A stretch of DNA of 64,000 bases, taken from positions 11,423,891 through 11,487,890 of the forward strand of contig NC_092564.1 of assembly GCF_037975245.1 (NCBI RefSeq). Direction: 5' to 3'. Position numbers and translations under genes: made by a program. The notes beneath the pieces were generated by a model. It was not told where the DNA came from. It did no database searches and saw only the letters and a list, made by a program, of their open reading frames with translations. Each line of letters starts with the position of its first letter. Position 1 is the first letter of the stretch. The DNA comes from Apostichopus japonicus. Its lineage: Eukaryota. This document shows, piece after piece, positions 1,790-52,997 of this stretch.

Positions 1790-2600
1790 TTTGTGTGTGA
1801 GGTCAATAAGCCCAAGAGTTCTTAACATTGCAAATATCCTTCTTGTTTCCTTGGCAACAGAGTACCTCAACTATGAGGACTCCCAAGTTTTCACTTTTTG
1901 TGTGTGACGTAGTCAATAAGCCCAAGAGTTCTTAACATTTCAAAAATCCTTCTTGTTTCCTTGGCAACAGAGTACCTCAGCTATGAGGACTCCAAGTTTT
2001 CACTATTTGTGTGTGATGTAGTCAATAAGCCAAAGAGTTCTTAAGATTTCAAATATCCTCTTGTTTCCTTGGCAACAGAGAACCTTAAGTATGAGGATTC
2101 CAAGTGTTCACTATTTGTGTGTGACGTAGTCAAAAAGCCAAAGAGTTCTTGACATTTCAAATATCCTTCTTGTTTCCTTGGCAACAGAGTACCTTAACTA
2201 TGAGGACTCCAAGTTTTCACTATTTGTGTGTGAGGTAGTCAATAAGCCCAAGAGTCCTTAACATTTCAAATATCCTTCTTGTTTCCTTGGTTACAGAGTA
2301 CCTCAGCTATGAGGACTCCAAGTTTTCACCATTTGTGTGTGATGTAGTCAATAAACTAAAGAGTTCTTGACATTTCAAATATCCTACTTGTTTCCTTGGC
2401 AACAGAGTACCTCAACTATGAGGATTCTAAGCTTTCAATAAGCCAAAGAGTTCTTGACATTTCAAATATCTTTCTTGTTCCCTTAGCAACAGAGTACCTT
2501 AACTATATGGACTCCAAGTTTTCACTGTTTGTGTGTGAGGTAGTCAATAAGCCCAAGAGTTCTTAACATTTCAAATATCCTCTTGTTTCCTTGGCAACAG
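1790..2600 (+). repeat. Tandem array, about 109-bp unit, about 7.5 copies. It duplicates the 3' end of MARS1 intron 2 (polypyrimidine tract + AG) plus the first ~35 nt of exon 3. The last copy is the real exon-3 acceptor.
   Basis: ttccttggcaacag AGTACCTCAACTATGAGGACTCCAAGTTTTCAC recurs at 1860, 1970, 2078, 2187, 2296, 2405, 2493 and 2600. In the copies the exon-like part runs into ...TTTGTGTGTGA, an in-frame TGA. Confidence 0.9.
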
Positions 2601-2814: not shown

Positions 2815-3463
2815 GTTAGAGAGTAAGAGTGCTTTGTTCAGTTGTTAGTAAATATACTCTACTTAAATTAATACAGAAGGAAATATGTTGGTATTAATAC
2901 ACACCAGGATGTTGTGCTTAAACTGTAATAGAGGCTGATAAATATCTCTCTCTGGTTTAGTCCTGAATTTCAGTGATGGATTATCCAATAGAATCAGATG
3001 AAGCAAGTGTATTGGGTTAAGGGCCCGCATGGCCTAGCGGTCTCCATGTGCACTTCCATGCAAGACATAACTTACAGGTTGTGCCTGCATACTGCATTAA
3101 AAGTGCCTTAAGGCTCCAGAAGGTTTCAATTTTGGCACTGCCTGTATCATGTGATCAGCAATGTCACCATGCCTTAAAGAAAGTATTTTTTGTTTGATTT
3201 TACAAAGTTGAGACTCTGTTTTCATTGAAAATTTAATTATGGAAAAGTTAGGTTCTTGGATAGCTTGACAGTCTTTGTATTTTAAAATGCTGCTCTTAAA
3301 GTGATTTTTATGTCTAAAATGAGGAAGTCATTTCACCACCTTTTTTTTTTACCTCAAGGTTTGGCACTTTGCAACAGTTGCATCGTAATTCAAAAATAAT
3401 TGTAAATTGCAGTGTTCAGTCATTTATTGTAAACAGTAATCCTAATTTTTGTTAACTGTTTAG

Positions 3464-3595
3464 GGGTCTCATGTTCTTGGAGAAGAACTTTGGAGGACTT
3501 GTTCAAGAGTTGAAGCTGGAACAGTTGGATTGCCAGCTTTTAGCTGCAGTGAGTCAGGAACTGAAGCAATATGTCAGTCTCCTTGAGAAAGTCAG
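3464..3595 (+). CDS. MARS1: MetRS exon: GLMFLEKNFGGLVQELKLEQLDCQLLAAVSQELKQYVSLLEKV(R).
   Basis: Acceptor ctgtttag|G and donor GTCAG|gtaagc. Frame is continuous with the previous exon (NR|G). Confidence 0.85.
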
Positions 3596-3596
3596 G

Positions 3597-5420
3597 TAAG
3601 CATCACTTTAACATTTGTTTGTATCTATAGTAACCTGTTTATTGTTATATGTGTATGCTATGAAGTACTACTGGGTCTCTCAGTTGCTATGTAACTGTAC
3701 TGAACATAAAGAACTCCTTATGACAACAAAACATGAATGAGCTAATACATAGTAACCTGTTTATTGTTATATGTGTATGCTATGAAGTACTACTGGGTCT
3801 CTCAGTTGGTATGTAACCTTACTGAACATTGACAACTCCTTATGACAACAAAACATGAATGAGCTAATACATAGTAACCTGTTTATTGTTACATGTGTAT
3901 GCTATGAAGTACTACTGGGTCTCTCAGTTGGTATGTAACTGTACTGAACATAAAGAACTCCTTATGACAACAAAACATGAATGTGCTAATACATAGTAAC
4001 CTGTTTATTGTTATATGTGTATGCTATGAAGTACTACTGGGTCTCTCAGTTGGTATGTAACTGTACTGAACATAAAGAACTCCTTATGACAACAAAACAT
4101 GAATGTGCTAATACATAGTAACCTGTTTATTGTTATATGTGTATGCTATGAAGTACTACTGGGTCTCTCAGTTGCTATGTAACTGTACTGAACATAAAGA
4201 ACTCCTTATGACAACAAAACATGAATGTGCTAATACATAGTAACCTGTTTATTGTTATATGTGAATGTTATGAAGTACTACTGGGTCTCTCAGTTGGTAT
4301 GTAACTGTACTGAACATAAAGAACTCCTTATGAAAACAAAACATGAATGTGCTAATACATAGTAACCTGTTTATTGTTATATGTGAATGTTATGAAGTAC
4401 TACTGGGTCTCTCAGTTGGTATGTAACCTAACTGAACATTGACAACTCCTTATGCCAGCATAACATGAATGAGCTAATACATAGTAACCTGTTTATTATT
4501 GTATGTGTATGCTATGAAGTACTACTGGGTCTCTCAGTTGGTATGTAACTGTACTGAACATAAAGAACTCCTTATGACAACAAAACATGAATGTGCTAAT
4601 ACATAGTAACCTGTTTATTGTTATATGTGAATGTTATGAAGTACTACTGGGTCTCTCAGTTGCTATGTAACCTAACTGAACATTGACAACTCCTTATGAC
4701 AGCAAAACATGAATGAGCTAATACATAGTAACCTGTTTATTATTGTATGTGAATGTTATGAAGTACTACTGGGTCTCTCAGTTGGTATGTAACCTAACTG
4801 AACATTGACAACTCCTTATGCCAGCATAACATGAATGAGCTAATACATAGTAACCTGTTTATTATTGTATGTGTATGCTATGAAGTACTACTGGGTCTCT
4901 CAGTTGGTATGTAACTGTACTGAACATAAAGAACTCCTTATGACAACAAAACATGAATGTGCTAATACATAGTAACCTGTTTATTGTTATATGTGAATGT
5001 TATGAAGTACTACTGGGTCTCTCAGTTGCTATGTAACCTAACTGAACATTGACAACTCCTTATGACAGCAAAACATGAATGAGCTAATACATAGTAACCT
5101 GTTTATTATTGTATGTGAATGTTATGAAGTACTACTGGGTCTCTCAGTTGGTATGTAACCTAACTGAACATTGACAACTCCTTATGCCAGCATAACATGA
5201 ATGAGCTAATACATAGTAACCTGTTTATTGTTATATGTGTATGCTATGAAGTACTACTGGGTCTCTCAGTTGGTATGTAACTGTACTGAACATAAAGAAC
5301 TCCTTATGACAACAAAACATGAATGTGCTAATACATAGTAACCTGTTTATTGTTATATGTGAATGTTATGAAGAATTACTGGGTCTCTCAGTTGGTATGT
5401 AACCTTACATTGACAACTCC
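3597..5420 (+). repeat. Minisatellite, about 112-123-bp unit, about 15 copies. A 360-bp higher-order repeat (3 subunit variants) is repeated three times at 4440-5400. It starts right at the exon-4 donor of MARS1.
   Basis: Unit catagtaacctgtttattgttatatgtgtatgctatgaagtactactgggtctctcagttg... Variant subunits (..ccagcataacatg..) recur at 4456, 4816 and 5176. Confidence 0.9.
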
Positions 5421-8082: not shown

Positions 8083-8247
8083 GGAGATGAAGTTCGTAAG
8101 TTGAAGACGGACAAAGCCGAGAAATCACAGATCGATCTCGAAGTAGCCAAGCTATTGGCTTTGAAGAAAGAGCTGGCTCTGGCCTTGGGGGTCAAACCAG
8201 AGGCGGGAAAGAAGGGAGGAAAGAGTAAGAAAGGAAAGAAAAAGTAA
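8083..8247 (+). CDS. MARS1: MetRS terminal exon: WHEP-like helix-turn-helix plus lysine-rich tail ([54 protein letters not shown]). TAA stop at 8245-8247.
   Basis: Acceptor cgctacag|GGA. In-frame TAA. Matches the human MetRS C-terminus ([45 protein letters not shown]). Confidence 0.88.
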
Positions 8248-10599: not shown

Positions 10600-11010
10600 A
10601 CTTGTGAGAACAGGCCATAAAATGATTACAGGTGATATTCAGTGACAGTTGTTACTAGCTTCAGTATATGGATCGTTACAAGATGTGAGAACAGGCCATA
10701 AAATTATAACAGGTGATATTCAGTGACAGTTGTTACTAGCTTCAGTATATGGATCGTTACAAGATGTGAGAACAGGCCATAAAATTATAACAGGTGATAT
10801 TCAGCGACCGTTGTAACTAGCTTCAGTATATGGATCGTTACAAGATGTGAGAACAGGCCATAAAATTATTACAGGTGATATTCAGAAACAGTAGTAACTA
10901 GCTTCAGTATATGGATCGATACAAGATGTGAGAACAGGCCATAAAATTATTACAGGTGATATTCAGCAACAGTAGTAACTAGCTTCAGTATATGGATCGT
11001 TACAAGATGC
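10600..11010. repeat. Intergenic tandem repeat, about 90-bp unit x 5 (gtgagaacaggccataaaatt...ggatcgttacaagat).
   Basis: Direct repeats read in sequence. Confidence 0.85.
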
Positions 11011-14079: not shown

Positions 14080-14559
14080 CTGTGCCGGAGAGAATAATAA
14101 TGATCAATTGTATGTTTGACTCACTATTGTTTGTTAGAACAACAGACTAAGTTATTTAGATTAGAGTTCTTCTTATGGGGCCCTCCATGGGGAATTTCAA
14201 TCTCTTCTAATCCTTTTTTCACTTCTGTACTAAGCTAAATTACTAGAGACAATTATTTGTACTATGGAAGACCATTATTACTACCATACATAACTATTAT
14301 TACCACAGGAGACCATAATTATTACTATAAGAAGTACAAGAGTCCATATCACTGCTGCACGGAACCATTATTGTTATTAGAAAAAGAATCCCCATATTTG
14401 TTAGTGTAGGAGACCATTACCATGATTAAAATGAATATTTAGTTAAAAAGGCCGTTGTTAGCATCATTATAACTAGAGCAGACAATAATTACTTAATAGA
14501 AGAAAAGATCATTATTATGATGACCAGCGACGATGTCAAACATTGACAAATAAATGAGC

Positions 14560-15655
14560 AATGCATATAATATATAGAGATAGTGTGACGTCTGACCGAT
14601 GCCTTCAGTCAGACAAAGCAAGGATATTAATATGTAGAGATAGTGTCATCTGAGTGATGCCTTCAGTCAGAAACAGCAAACATTACAATATGCACAGATA
14701 GTGCCATCTGATTGATGCCTTCAGTCACACACAGCAAGAATTACAATATGCAGAGATAGTGCCATCTGATGGGTGCCTTCACTCAGACACAGCAATGATT
14801 ATTATATATAGAGAAAGTGTGACGTCTGACTGATGCCTTCAGTCAGACTTGGCATGAATTCTAATATCTAGAGATAGTGACATATGATGGATGCCTTCAG
14901 TCAGACACAGCAATGATTATAATATATAGAGATAGTGTGACCTCTGACTGATGCCTTCAGTCAGACACAGCAATGATAATAATATATAGAGATAGTGTGA
15001 CCTCTGACTGATGCCTTCAGCCAGACACAGCAATGATTATAGTATATAGAGATAGTGTGATGTATGACTGATGCCTTCAGTCAGACATGGCATGAATTCT
15101 AATATCTAGAGATAGTGACATATGATGGATGCCTTCAGTCAGACACAGCAATGATTATAATATATAGAGATAGTGTGACCTCTGACTGATGCCTTCAGTC
15201 AGACACAGCAATGATAATAATATATAGAGATAGTGTGACCTCTGACTGATGCCTTCAGCCAGACACAGCAATGATTATAGTATATAGAGATAGTGTGATG
15301 TATGACTGATGCCTTCAGTCAGACTTGGCATGAATTCTAATATCTAGAGATAGTGACATATGATGGATGCCTTCAGTCAGACACAGCAATGATTATAATA
15401 TATAGAGATAGTGTGACCTCTGACTGATGCCTTCAGTCAGACACAGCAATGATAATAATATATAGAGATAGTGTGACCTCTGACTGATGCCTTCAGCCAG
15501 ACACAGCAATGATTATAGTATATAGAGATAGTGTGATGTATGACTGATGCCTTCAGTCAGACATGGCATGAACTCTAATATCTAGAGATAGTGACATATG
15601 ATGGATGCCTTCAGTCAAATACATCTACTAAATAAAGCTGATTGCCTTGTAATAC
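14560..15655. repeat. Minisatellite in the TEP1 3' intron, about 60-bp unit with a 240-bp higher-order repeat x about 4. It ends at the donor of exon 15656-15826.
   Basis: Unit atagtgtgacctctgactgatgccttcagtcagacacagcaatgattataatatatagag. The HOR marker (..ggcatgaattctaatatctagagatagtgacatatgatggatgcc) recurs at about 14840, 15080, 15320 and 15560. Confidence 0.88.
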
Positions 15656-16569: not shown

Positions 16570-16925
16570 TTAAGGAAAGCTGCTTTACTTGTTTTGATAT
16601 ATTGTAACTGAAAACATGATTTCATATAATGCTATCAAAAGTGGTACAAAACAAAATCCCAACTGAAAACATGATTTCATATACGATATCAAAAGTAATA
16701 CAAAAATGAATATTGACTGAAACAGGAGTGCATATATGATATCAAAAGTGGCACAAAACAAATCTCGACTGAAAACATGATTTCATATTCGATATCAAAA
16801 GTGATACAAAAAAAAATATTGACTGAAACACGATTGCATATATGATATCAAAAGTGGCACAAAACAAATCTCGACTGAAAACATGAATTCATATTCGATA
16901 TCAAAAGGAATTCCAAATAAAAACC
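16570..16925. repeat. Tandem repeat, about 120-bp unit x 3 (gactgaaaacatgatttcatat..gatatcaaaagtg..acaaaa), abutting the donor of TEP1 exon 16939-17112.
   Basis: Direct repeats read in sequence. Confidence 0.8.
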
Positions 16926-48433: not shown

Positions 48434-49004
48434 TTTGGATGTATCTCAAGATTTTCCCTGAATATGGAAAATTACAAATAGAATGTACAATATTAGTGTT
48501 CAAACGATTATGCATAACAGAAAATACCGATTACTGATTATTTTTTTCATAATCGAGTCCGATTCTGATTATTTGAAAATGAGAAAATATCCCGTTTATA
48601 CGAAATTGGCAATAAAGTTTGACAGAAACAGTTATTGTTGTGATTTTCCCCTGTTTCCTTTTGCTTTGTTGTAATACAAGGCTCTAAGGTATCCTTTTGT
48701 ATGTACCAAATTACCTCTGTTTTTCCTGTCTAGACTCTTAAACTCGTCCATCAAGCTTATGGATTTGAATTATGGGTGTTTTAATAAAAAAGATAACTTG
48801 GCCAAAAAAAGTGTAGGCCCGGGCCTACAGTGCTACATACTGGCTACGCCCCTGATAGTTCTAAATTAGGATTAGATCTCTTACTGAAATATCGCTGACC
48901 TAATAAGGTGATCAAGAGTACAAGTTTTATGTAGAAAAAGGGCACATTTTTATCCTGAGGAAAAGTGGGGGGGCACTTGCCCCCTGTGCCCCCCGGTTCC
49001 GCCG

Positions 49005-51864
49005 CCCTTGAAGGTACATGTACAGAGTAGTCTTACTTTTCAACTTCTGATACTTGTAGATACAAAGATAGTCCAGAAATGTCTTTGATACAACTGTAGC
49101 TAGTAAATGTTTAAGTTAGCCTAATAAGAGAAGGCGAGAGCTATCAGACGATTGCCATCTGATGCAAATTTCTCAAGTGTTTTCTCAACTGAAATATTAT
49201 CTGCGTAAACGGGTTCTTAACTACATGTTAAAAAACTGACAAGATCTGATCCTATAGTCTTTTTCGGGGGGTAGAGTGTTGAATGAAACTATCGTGCTAC
49301 ATACTGGCTACGCCCTGATCATATGATATCAGTATCAGCAGATTTTGTTTCCTGTTTAAATTCTTTTACATGTTCTTTTACATAATATATCAGAAAGACA
49401 AACATAGTGCTCTTTTACAAGTTTTCCAGTAGGATGATTCTTGTTTATTGTCCAATGTCTGGACTTTAATACATTTGACGAACTTAACTGATGGACTATA
49501 TAAACTTGAATATTTTGTAATACAGCCAGATATGCAGTGGCCTAAAAACAAATATCGTTATCGCAGTGTATTAGCAGTGTAATAATTATTTATAGGAAGT
49601 GCGTGTCACGTACGATTGCTAGCTTAGCTTCATAACATGCTGTTCGTGCAACAACTTAGGACGACTCATTGCACGAACGTTGTCGACGTTGTTGTGCATA
49701 CAGTTCGTGACATTCCATAGAGTGCGGTTAGGTAGGCAATATGTATTTTATAACGCAGTGGCCAACTGTAGGCTTGTAATTGGCTATATTTAAGCTAAAT
49801 TTAGCTAATTGCATCTGCCAAACTAAGTAAGTAGTTGAATCAGTAGGCGTGAATGTTACTACGATTACAATCGAGTTAACGGAGCTGACGAGTATTCAAG
49901 ATCAAAAGAGCACTGACAAAATACCATGCTAAAAAAAGACAGTTTAAAAAAAAAAAAAATATCGACACTGAAAGGGGGGGAGCGGTCGCTCCCCCTGCTC
50001 CCCCCTGGCTACGTCCCTGATGTGGTCGGAGATTTGTGGGGATTTTAGGTTTTTTTCGCTGGTACTGAAATTGCTTTGTGGAGGCCGTAATTTGCCACGG
50101 GACTTCCCGGTGATTGTGTGGGATTTGATGATTTGATGCGGGATGTGAGAACTGTTTGCGCTATTCGCGCTGCAACTGCAATTCCTAGCTAAAGCAAACA
50201 CATGTCACAATTAATTTTACACAGACACCTGATATAACGAGGGCGATTTTCTTTTATTTCTTTTTTTCTTTTTCGCACTCGTAATTGTGCTTTAGGAGGG
50301 CTTTTTTGCACTTGCGAGGGCGAATCGCCCGTCGTCTCCGCTTATTTCCAACCCTGTCCAGCACATTCATTAATTCGCGGGATTGGTATTGCTGCCATGC
50401 TTACTGTGCTTAATATGAAGTCACTAACCACTAACCACCCTTGAAGGTACATGTACAGAGTAGTCTTACTTTTCAACTTCTGATACTTGTAGATACAAAG
50501 ATAGTCCAGAAATGTCTTTGATACAACTGTAGCTAGTAAATGTTTAAGTTAGCCTAATAAGAGAAGGCGAGAGCTATCAGACGATTGCCATCTGATGCAA
50601 ATTTCTCAAGTGTTTTCTCAACTGAAATATTATCTGCGTAAACGGGTTCTTAACTACATGTTAAAAAACTGACAAGATCTGATCCTATAGTCTTTTTCGG
50701 GGGGTAGAGTGTTGAATGAAACTATCGTGCTACATACTGGCTACGCCCTGATCATATGATATCAGTATCAGCAGATTTTGTTTCCTGTTTAAATTCTTTT
50801 ACATGTTCTTTTACATAATATATCAGAAAGACAAACATAGTGCTCTTTTACAAGTTTTCCAGTAGGATGATTCTTGTTTATTGTCCAATGTCTGGACTTT
50901 AATACATTTGACGAACTTAACTGATGGACTATATAAACTTGAATATTTTGTAATACAGCCAGATATGCAGTGGCCTAAAAACAAATATCGTTATCGCAGT
51001 GTATTAGCAGTGTAATAATTATTTATAGGAAGTGCGTGTCACGTACGATTGCTAGCTTAGCTTCATAACATGCTGTTCGTGCAACAACTTAGGACGACTC
51101 ATTGCACGAACGTTGTCGACGTTGTTGTGCATACAGTTCGTGACATTCCATAGAGTGCGGTTAGGTAGGCAATATGTATTTTATAACGCAGTGGCCAACT
51201 GTAGGCTTGTAATTGGCTATATTTAAGCTAAATTTAGCTAATTGCATCTGCCAAACTAAGTAAGTAGTTGAATCAGTAGGCGTGAATGTTACTACGATTA
51301 CAATCGAGTTAACGGAGCTGACGAGTATTCAAGATCAAAAGAGCACTGACAAAATACCATGCTAAAAAAAGACAGTTTAAAAAAAAAAAAAATATCGACA
51401 CTGAAAGGGGGGGAGCGGTCGCTCCCCCTGCTCCCCCCTGGCTACGTCCCTGATGTGGTCGGAGATTTGTGGGGATTTTAGGTTTTTTTCGCTGGTACTG
51501 AAATTGCTTTGTGGAGGCCGTAATTTGCCACGGGACTTCCCGGTGATTGTGTGGGATTTGATGATTTGATGCGGGATGTGAGAACTGTTTGCGCTATTCG
51601 CGCTGCAACTGCAATTCCTAGCTAAAGCAAACACATGTCACAATTAATTTTACACAGACACCTGATATAACGAGGGCGATTTTCTTTTATTTCTTTTTTT
51701 CTTTTTCGCACTCGTAATTGTGCTTTAGGAGGGCTTTTTTGCACTTGCGAGGGCGAATCGCCCGTCGTCTCCGCTTATTTCCAACCCTGTCCAGCACATT
51801 CATTAATTCGCGGGATTGGTATTGCTGCCATGCTTACTGTGCTTAATATGAAGTCACTAACCAC
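49005..51864. repeat. Tandem segmental duplication of 1433 bp x 2 (49005-50437 and 50438-51864), nearly identical copies. The junction lies in a 7-bp direct microhomology (ctaacca ctaacca).
   Basis: Identical 85-aa ORFs at 49944-50201 and 51377-51634. cccttgaaggtacatgtacagag restarts at 50438. Each unit holds G-run/ggctacgcc MITE-end-like motifs, an A14 run and a CpG-rich segment. Confidence 0.9.
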
Positions 51865-52997
51865 GAGGGAAGCAAAATCGGCGACCCTGGCAGCCTAATT
51901 TGATAAAATAACATTGTGAAAGACGTATAGAGGGTGTCTTTATTATAATATTTCGTAGTTAAAGAACAAACCTTATACATCAGTTGATATTTTCAACTTC
52001 CACATGTTTTTGAATGATGATATTTTCACCTTCCATATGTTTTTGAATAATCGGTATGACATAACTGGTATTCCACGTAATTTTTACCGATTCTGATTAT
52101 GTTCCGATTATGCAATAATCTTACCGATTCCGATTAGGTTAATCGTTTGAACACTATACAATATATACATAGAATTAGGTGAACATTATATATATTAGAG
52201 CCTTTGAAAATAAAATGAAAATGACATAAAATGAACTAGGCAGAATTTACTCATATCAAAACTAGTAGTTAGTTAATTAACAACTAGCACAAGGTTAGGC
52301 TAGACCTACTTGCAGCATACCTCTGCAATGACATCTTGTTTTTCAGAATGCTGATAGGCCTACTGAAATTTTACACACCTACCTGTACAATGTTACAGAA
52401 TGACTCCAGAATATTTTGTAGGTAGCCTATTAAATCAAATAGGCCTACATGTTTTCAAACACAATTATTTAATGACATCCCTCGTTATGTAGATGAATCC
52501 CCTCACCATGGGTAGCTTGGAATGGAAATTAGCTTGTTGATCTGTAGTACACTGTATAAGTATACAGCTTGCCTTGGTGGATTCGGGTGTACAGTGTAGC
52601 TTAAATACACAATTACACGTACAGTACATAAGATTAGGCCTAGGCTGGGTAAACATGCACGAACTCACATATCAGTCACCATGTTTAAAGTAATGATTAA
52701 TCTATTATCTGAATTAAATATATTCGATTGCAATACCTGTCGAATTATGTTAGTTAACAGCTTCAGTTTGCATCAGTAGCTTTGTAAAGGCGTCTTACAA
52801 TGAATTCGCCCACAACGTTCCGTTCCGGGGCCCAAACACACACTGCACAGGTATGCGGTTGCCATGATAATGTGCAATACCATGGTGTCTGAAAAGAAGT
52901 ACGATTGCGACATTCCCTGCAATCATCAGGGAGGATATCCGATCACGGATCAGTCTCTGGTTTAGTAGGGAGGGGTACTTCCCTGGTATTCATTACC

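Follow-up and report, generated by a model that had tools for sequence, protein, structure and literature searches.

A tandem array that repeats a 3′ splice site in MARS1 of Apostichopus japonicus is probably a neutral, mirage-type minisatellite

We analysed a stretch of 64,000 nucleotides (nt) of the Apostichopus japonicus genome (NCBI RefSeq assembly GCF_037975245.1, contig NC_092564.1, positions 11,423,891 to 11,487,890 of the forward strand; hereafter the window, in which coordinates are counted) and found that MARS1, the gene for a cytoplasmic-type methionyl-tRNA synthetase (MetRS), carries a head-to-tail array of 109-base-pair (bp) units across one of its intron-exon junctions. The array (1789-2631, + strand; ~7.7 units) holds eight copies of the acceptor, seven of which lie in the intron as decoys upstream of the authentic site. 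We put at about 0.8 the probability that it is a lineage-specific, selectively neutral (or almost neutral) "mirage", the name given to minisatellites lying across exon-intron boundaries in lancelet genes (PMC3087553, PMC3902484); it is most likely a tolerated accident and no regulator of the gene.

The array and its host gene

MARS1 exons were taken from the open stretches of the + strand, by a scan for open reading frames (ORFs) and by reading of the sequence. Those that bear on the array, and the intron that contains it, are as follows (a slash marks a splice boundary here and below).

156-497, + strand: MARS1 exon A (NPRCKICN...WWKNPDE), with which the MetRS exons of the window begin; acceptor tttcag/AAC and donor GAG/GTAAGA
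1069-1186, + strand: MARS1 exon B, ending ...NHLIAT plus G, with donor CAG/GTAAAT at 1187; Pfam tRNA-synt_1g
1187-2600, + strand: intron B-C, 1414 nt, phase 1
2601-2814, + strand: authentic MARS1 exon C, 214 nt, ending ...NLGNFIN plus AG, with donor CAG/GTTAGA (GT at 2815-2816)
3464-3595, + strand: MARS1 exon D (GLMFLEKNFGG...LLEKVR), with donor CAG/GTAAGC

Five more MARS1 exons follow exon D, the last of them with the WHEP domain and a stop near 8244; this C-terminal domain marks the enzyme as a metazoan MetRS. The window's MARS1 exons are without exception intact and in frame. When the first seven exons were conceptually spliced, the product of 390 amino acids (aa) was colinear with human cytoplasmic MetRS (PDB 5gl7; E = 3e-174), and Pfam recognized tRNA-synt_1g and WHEP-TRS in the window's MetRS, bearing out the initial annotation of the host gene as MARS1 and identifying it as cytoplasmic-type. 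The splice of exon B to exon C left no alignment gap against 5gl7 at the junction HLIAT/EYLNYED, and the authentic acceptor is therefore 2600/2601; its partner 5′ splice site, the exon B donor, matches the U1 consensus at 8/9 positions. Exon C codes for the KFSKS loop, of the KMSKS type, which lies mid-protein, and the name "exon 3" used for it in the initial annotation fits only in the sense that two other MARS1 exons precede it in the window.

The tandem duplication of a 3′ splice site and exon start that had been noted in this intron is far beyond chance. Tandem Repeats Finder reported it at 1789-2437 (period 109, 6.0 copies, 90% matches, score 1044), with further overlapping rows setting its end at 2631. 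When the acceptors were located by anchoring on ACAG/AG(T/A)ACCT, eight copies of ...cttgtttccttggcaacag/AGTACCT... were found, whose first exon-like bases are 1861, 1971, 2079, 2188, 2297, 2406 and 2493 in the intron and 2601 at the authentic site. The six decoy acceptors listed previously thus belong to a real array, from which 2297 had been overlooked and in which the entry 2494 should read 2493. Each unit joins 78 nt of the 3′ end of the intron to 31 nt of the start of exon C (AGTACCTCAACTATGAGGACTCCAAGTTTTC), the exon part being somewhat shorter than the ~35 nt first given. As had been stated, the last copy is the only one contiguous with the rest of the exon: the authentic copy alone runs on into ...CAAGAGCAGAGGGGTTGGT (SKSRGVG), whereas the seven upstream copies lead back into the intronic part of the following unit. 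A 22-nt deletion shortens the unit from 2406 to 87 bp, and copy 1 carries a 1-nt insertion and a 3-nt indel; the acceptors are spaced 87-110 nt apart. In total, the array occupies the last 812 nt, or 57%, of the 1414-nt intron.

Where a 3′ junction is duplicated in tandem, the last unit remains attached to the remainder of the exon. The sequence shows this outcome: the extra units all fall in the intron, one complete exon is left, and the coding sequence is untouched by the expansion, which explains why the gene survives it.

Two other origins were considered for parts of the intron. A dispersed repeat or transposon as the source of the 109-bp unit was ruled out by blastn with two units, which found no further copy elsewhere in the 64-kb window and only chance-level matches outside 1700-2700. 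Two intronic strings resembling exon B, "IFPCSLL" (~1290) and "WKAT" (~1775), have no DNA similarity to that exon and were set aside as chance. The GC content of the window is ~36-37%.

Splice signals, reading frames and divergence of the decoys

The seven intronic copies retain most of what would be expected of an acceptor, and their individual properties are listed below; mismatches are those to the authentic site in the 23-mer from -20 to +3.

1822-1891, + strand: pseudo-acceptor module 1, reaching from its branch-like motif (TTAAC) to the end of its exon-derived segment, exon-like start 1861; 23-mer identical; TGA at 1905
1932-2001, + strand: pseudo-acceptor module 2, start 1971; 23-mer identical; 98% identity to the real copy; TAA at 2042
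2040-2109, + strand: pseudo-acceptor module 3, start 2079; one mismatch; TTRAC lost (TTAAG); TGA at 2150
2149-2218, + strand: pseudo-acceptor module 4, start 2188; 23-mer identical; TAA at 2259
2258-2327, + strand: pseudo-acceptor module 5, start 2297; two mismatches (ggTTacag); TGA at 2368
2367-2436, + strand: pseudo-acceptor module 6, start 2406; one mismatch; 22-nt deletion after it, giving the 87-bp unit; TAA at 2564
2454-2523, + strand: pseudo-acceptor module 7, start 2493; two mismatches; AG at -8; TAA at 2564

CAG is retained in 7/7 intronic copies. Three decoys (1861, 1971 and 2188) have the same 23-mer as the authentic site, and any method that scores -20 to +3 must therefore rate them equal to it; the remaining four differ from it by 1-2 mismatches. 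A branch-like motif, TTRAC, with its A at -35/-36, is present in six of the seven decoys and in the authentic copy, and each of the eight copies has a pyrimidine tract of its own. Among the copies that keep the motif, no AG lies between it and the acceptor except in copy 7. Two decoys show early decay, copy 3 (2079) by loss of the branch-like motif and copy 7 (2493) by the additional AG at -8, and every recognisable signal (branch-like motif, pyrimidine tract and AG) is retained in 5/7. The copies differ from NAGNAG and other short-range tandem acceptors, whose AGs, 3 nt or a few nt apart, share one branch point and tract, since they lie 87-110 nt apart with their own tracts and, except for copy 3, their own branch-like motifs. 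At the authentic acceptor, which reads CAG/AG, a second AG lies 2 nt downstream (2597-2604), as it does in every decoy; its use would shift the frame by 2 nt.

The decoys were translated in the MetRS phase, with exon B supplying the G. All seven led to a premature stop, within 15-53 codons, in agreement with the initial proposal that use of any decoy would end translation early. That proposal had placed an in-frame TGA within TTTGTGTGTGA in the decoy copies generally; it is found there in copy 1 (TGA 1905), where the 1-nt insertion brings it into frame, whereas the other copies stop elsewhere. In copies 2-5 and 7 the stop comes 72 nt in, as the TAA or TGA within TCTTAA/TCTTGA, and in copy 6 the frame is open as far as TAA 2564. 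If a decoy were paired with the real donor, the resulting exon would measure 322-954 nt, the shortest being that of the nearest decoy (2493; 322 nt).

Within the array, none of the decoy acceptors is followed by a GT that matches the U1 consensus at >=6/9 positions. Mini-exons built on the decoys were tried with GAG/GTAGTC and TGT/GTGAGG (by eye, ~5/9 to consensus), giving pseudo-exons of 42 or 47 nt, and were rejected: these either terminate (T+AG) or throw the reading out of frame, and their donors do not reach 6/9. Recursive splicing through the decoys was likewise discarded, as the junction of exon B with a decoy, CAG/AGTACC, recreates no GT donor.

These frames bear on the idea that the array is raw material for a change of gene structure, on its way to becoming a new exon or intron or to providing another exon start, in line with the intron-gain model put forward for "mirages". 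Such a route was proposed by Ebner et al. for lancelet globin introns (PMC3087553), and the functional-looking acceptors of the decoys would suit it. However, every decoy stops within 15-53 codons, and the pseudo-exons that could be formed, as read from the sequence, lose the frame or finish in a stop, with no donor at 6/9 or better. The duplicated peptide, moreover, adjoins the catalytic KFSKS loop; in an essential enzyme, insertions at such a place would be unlikely to be tolerated. We regard this as the least probable of the explanations considered.

As regards divergence, the authentic copy is 91-98% identical to each decoy, whereas the decoys are 85-95% identical to one another, a star-like pattern. 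This pattern fits a single amplification burst followed by independent decay, with purifying selection acting on the real copy. Differences per site-copy amounted to 3.3% from -20 to +3, to 5.7% in the intronic sequence upstream of it and to 7.6% in the segment derived from the exon; the 3.3% of the splice-site region compares with 6.5% in the rest of the unit, a difference that did not reach significance (Fisher p = 0.14). The substitution counts thus give no significant evidence that the decoy acceptors are either preserved or purged.

We propose that the array arose when a founding tandem duplication happened to fall across the junction, taking in 78 intronic and 31 exonic nt, and that slippage or unequal exchange would then have amplified it to eight units, such arrays being frequent in the host genome. 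Each unit would be a self-contained module with its branch-like motif, pyrimidine tract and AG, so that the choice of acceptor would amount to which module is committed early by U2AF and U2. Of the modules, the last alone leads into the whole of exon C (214 nt) with its genuine 5′ splice site; behind each of the remaining seven come 31 nt of exon and then intron with no acceptable donor, and exon definition would therefore favour 2601. Where splicing leaked to a decoy, the exon of 322-954 nt would place a premature stop upstream of at least six later junctions, and nonsense-mediated decay (NMD) would be expected to remove the transcripts. The decoys would since have diverged independently, while selection would have kept the authentic copy closest to the ancestral sequence.

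Related MetRS loci and competing explanations

A scan for related loci returned 80, the best of them 86% identical; 65 had enough upstream sequence to be searched for a second copy of the junction segment, and the junction could be read in 39. A second copy was found in 0/65, and at least 13 of the 39 have a phase-1 intron at the same position. Because none of the 65 shares the array while the intron position is the same in at least 13/39, the array appears to be confined to its lineage rather than conserved in MARS1. The best protein fragments, all short, reached 86% aa identity on exon C, which is highly conserved, with nucleotide identity of ~74% at most. A search with the 390-aa product gave 63-67% identity for the best long proteins (fish, lizard, annelid, lamprey and Branchiostoma), which were about equally distant. 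A scan of metagenome contigs for the junction's 26-mer gave no exact match.

One of the related loci, from another animal (L004; ENA ERZ25070167, contig ctg361040), has a junction-spanning array of its own in the same MARS1 intron, at the donor side (2919-5261 of that contig; 135-bp units x 13.1, 96% match). Its exon C is 73% identical in nucleotides to that of the window. In L004 the authentic exon B and its donor (...HLVAT G/GTAATT) are followed by ~13 further units, each consisting of ~89 nt of exon end and 46 nt of intron start, and in-frame stops occur in several of them. An insert of ~400 bp (~3110-3510), with inverted repeats at its termini and probably a small transposon, interrupts the second unit.

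The independent assembly of a like array in another species is relevant to whether the array in the window, or its copy number, might stem from a mis-assembled repeat region. Minisatellites are notoriously apt to be collapsed or expanded during assembly, Ebner et al. noted that the BflGb6 mirage of lancelets had been misassembled in the draft genome (PMC3087553), and elsewhere the window contains a 1433-bp tandem duplication with perfectly identical copies, a sign that very recent duplications or assembly duplications occur in it. Artificial expansion would, however, give near-identical copies, whereas the MARS1 units differ by 2-15% with private substitutions, the 1-nt insertion, the 3-nt indel and the 22-nt deletion. 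We therefore consider the existence of the array robust and an assembly artefact highly improbable; its exact copy number is uncertain and may vary between haplotypes.

The initial annotation had suggested that the array might act as a splicing sink or regulator. In such a scheme, the seven pseudo-acceptors would bind U2AF and U2 unproductively and so slow removal of the intron or divert transcripts to NMD, and MARS1 output would follow the level of splicing factors or the number of repeat copies. Several observations could be read this way: three decoys have the sequence of the real acceptor from -20 to +3 and 5/7 retain motif, tract and AG, every decoy yields a premature stop, and differences are scarcer in the 3′ splice-site region (3.3%) than in the remainder of the unit (6.5%), albeit non-significantly. 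There is also a precedent, in that U2AF-binding decoy exons promote intron retention in human SF3B1 and other genes (PMC6097662). These published decoys, however, are highly conserved cassettes of two sites, whereas the units here contain no 5′ splice site at >=6/9 and are absent from all 65 related MetRS loci. The difference in conservation is not significant (p = 0.14), and published mirages are reported to leave splicing undisturbed. Moreover, similar arrays that take in no splice site occur near it in the window, so an ordinary mutational origin suffices. Regulation by the decoys is, in our judgement, quite unlikely.

A bolder form of the same idea would make the array a copy-number-dependent brake, in which the seven intact modules capture U2AF and U2, delay or misdirect removal of the intron and send a varying part of the MARS1 transcripts to nuclear retention or NMD. 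If this were true, repeat length or the supply of splicing factors would set the dosage of MetRS, and the presence of arrays in the same intron of two unrelated animals would reflect recurrent selection instead of coincidence. We hold this to be very unlikely. Were the array to set MARS1 dosage, repeat length would control a housekeeping enzyme in a novel manner; nothing points there.

The neutral minisatellite thus remains our preferred explanation, and several points weigh against it. The compared loci include no close relative (at best 86% identity on the exon and 63-67% over 390 aa). Exon definition is a plausible explanation for the choice of 2601 rather than a proof, because experiments with duplicated acceptors disagree on which copy is used (PMC1557585). 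With three decoys identical to the authentic site over -20 to +3 and five of seven keeping all signals, substantial leakage is possible, and the 322-nt exon of the nearest decoy is close to the limit tolerated by exon definition. Finally, all seven AGs survive at a mean divergence of ~6%; their survival is compatible with chance (~0.45 for 14 site-copies, by our estimate), and it is also compatible with weak selection or homogenisation.

Junction-spanning minisatellites in other genes and in the window

The class to which the MARS1 array belongs has already been described, and the array is a clean further example of it, outside lancelets and in an essential gene. The closest parallel is the globin gene BflGb6 of lancelets, whose mirage consists of an intron's 3′ end and an exon's 5′ part in units of 150-160 bp with 81-100% identity (Ebner et al., PMC3087553). 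It is present in 6 and 3 copies on two haplotypes, and reverse transcription PCR showed that regular splicing was undisturbed (PMC3087553). A further case is the lancelet globin gene BflGb9 (PMC3087553), and the lancelet gene PGBD5 has 60- and 108-bp repeats over splice sites, with TnC cited as another instance (Pavelitz et al. 2013, PMC3902484). As credited by Ebner et al. (PMC3087553), the term "mirage" goes back to Canestro et al. 2002, who used it for Adh3 and observed somatic length instability as well.

The MARS1 array resembles these cases in being a head-to-tail array that spans the boundary and repeats the splice signal while the authentic exon is intact. Its unit is of minisatellite size (~10-160 bp), contains intron, exon and splice signal, and is contiguous with the junction. 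It shares the acceptor-side topology of BflGb6, and the 108-bp repeat of PGBD5 is close to its 109 bp. The differences lie in the gene, in the evidence and in the lineage: MARS1 encodes an essential aminoacyl-tRNA synthetase, its array is read here from the genomic sequence of one haplotype while the lancelet cases come with measurements of splicing and of copy-number instability, and Branchiostoma MetRS is 62-64% identical over 390 aa and no closer than that of fish, lizard, lamprey or annelid. The window and L004 take "mirages" beyond lancelets into two other animals.

Minisatellites at donors are known from the human genes F7, IFI6 (6-16), CBS (IVS13), LMNB2 and PDGF (Borensztajn et al. 2006, PMC1557585). 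In intron 7 of F7, a 37-bp unit is repeated 5-9 times, and the most upstream site wins by 5′-to-3′ scanning; IFI6 (6-16) has 25 pseudo-donors, two of which are used; CBS has 15-20 repeats, LMNB2 10-15 units of 100 bp and PDGF 16-18 units of 81 bp (PMC1557585). In F7, LMNB2 and PDGF the authentic site alone is used (PMC1557585). These arrays are similar to that of MARS1 in placing 4-25 identical pseudo-sites beside an authentic one, and the unit lengths of LMNB2 and PDGF are similar to that of MARS1; they, too, offer a model from nature for the choice of a splice site. They differ in that the repeats are on the donor side, with the first monomer authentic and the pseudo-sites downstream, whereas MARS1 is the acceptor-side mirror, with the last copy authentic. 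The upstream-wins rule of F7 would choose the wrong copy in MARS1, and therefore a different rule must operate. The F7-type arrangement is seen in the L004 array (2919-5261) and in a duplication in TEP1 within the window (47166-47452), described below.

Two further systems are comparable in part. The decoy exons in SF3B1 intron 4 and elsewhere are conserved cassettes with both 3′ and 5′ splice sites that promote intron retention and seldom end up in stable mRNA (PMC6097662). They are, like the MARS1 units, intronic splice-site elements that would lead to NMD if included and could engage U2AF; the MARS1 units differ in being tandem copies of a junction, with no credible 5′ splice site and no counterpart in the 65 loci. 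In globin minigenes with artificially duplicated acceptors, identical acceptors in cis likewise compete for one donor; according to the account in PMC1557585, one group found that the proximal copy was used and another found the opposite. Those minigenes had two copies, whereas MARS1 has eight natural ones, of which only the distal can give a functional mRNA.

The array had been put forward as a singular natural test case of acceptor choice, a description that does not hold in view of the junction-spanning minisatellites already published (PMC3087553, PMC3902484, PMC1557585). As an acceptor-side substrate with seven decoys, three of them identical over -20 to +3, it nevertheless allows 3′ splice-site choice to be tested among identical competitors. 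The published mechanistic work, on F7, concerns donors only, and a rule by which the upstream site wins would be lethal in MARS1. Such arrays also matter to annotators, since gene predictors and RNA-seq aligners are prone to misplace junctions in them.

Seven arrays or duplications with a period of >=50 nt make up ~7.7% of the 64-kb window. Besides the MARS1 array, they are the following.

3627-5403: minisatellite, 122 bp x 14.6, 93% match, filling most of the MARS1 intron after exon D
10603-11009: minisatellite, 81 bp x 5
14557-15617: minisatellite, period 60 or 238 bp
16607-16923: minisatellite, period 53 or 106 bp
40374-40597: minisatellite, 114 bp x 2, whose unit holds TTG/GTAAGT on the + strand
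47166-47452, - strand: TEP1 junction-spanning duplication, two copies with 146-161-bp spacing

The array at 3627-5403 was considered as a second junction-spanning case in MARS1 and rejected, as it begins 31 nt past the exon D donor, which lies outside it; it shows that large arrays arise in MARS1 with no involvement of a splice site. At TEP1, the same theme had been noted at a donor, and this was borne out: on the minus strand, the two-copy duplication repeats the end of an exon together with its donor (...VQFDPEFLLK/GTATGG), the exon coming from a TROVE-domain gene (Pfam TROVE, E = 1.6e-17). The real donor lies at about 47436; deeper in the intron by 146 nt, at about 47290, is the pseudo-donor.

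Judging from the exon map, the MARS1 part of the window has about one exon boundary per 480 bp, so that a random 109-bp unit would span a boundary in about 1 of 4-5 cases. Two junction-spanning cases among seven arrays or duplications are therefore, by this estimate, about what an unselective process would yield.

The 1433-bp direct tandem duplication (49002-51867) lies just upstream of the 5′ end of TEP1. It includes stretches of >=300 nt at 100% identity and two pairs of identical ORFs (49390-49551 and 50823-50984; 49944-50201 and 51377-51634), and it is either a very recent event or an assembly duplication.

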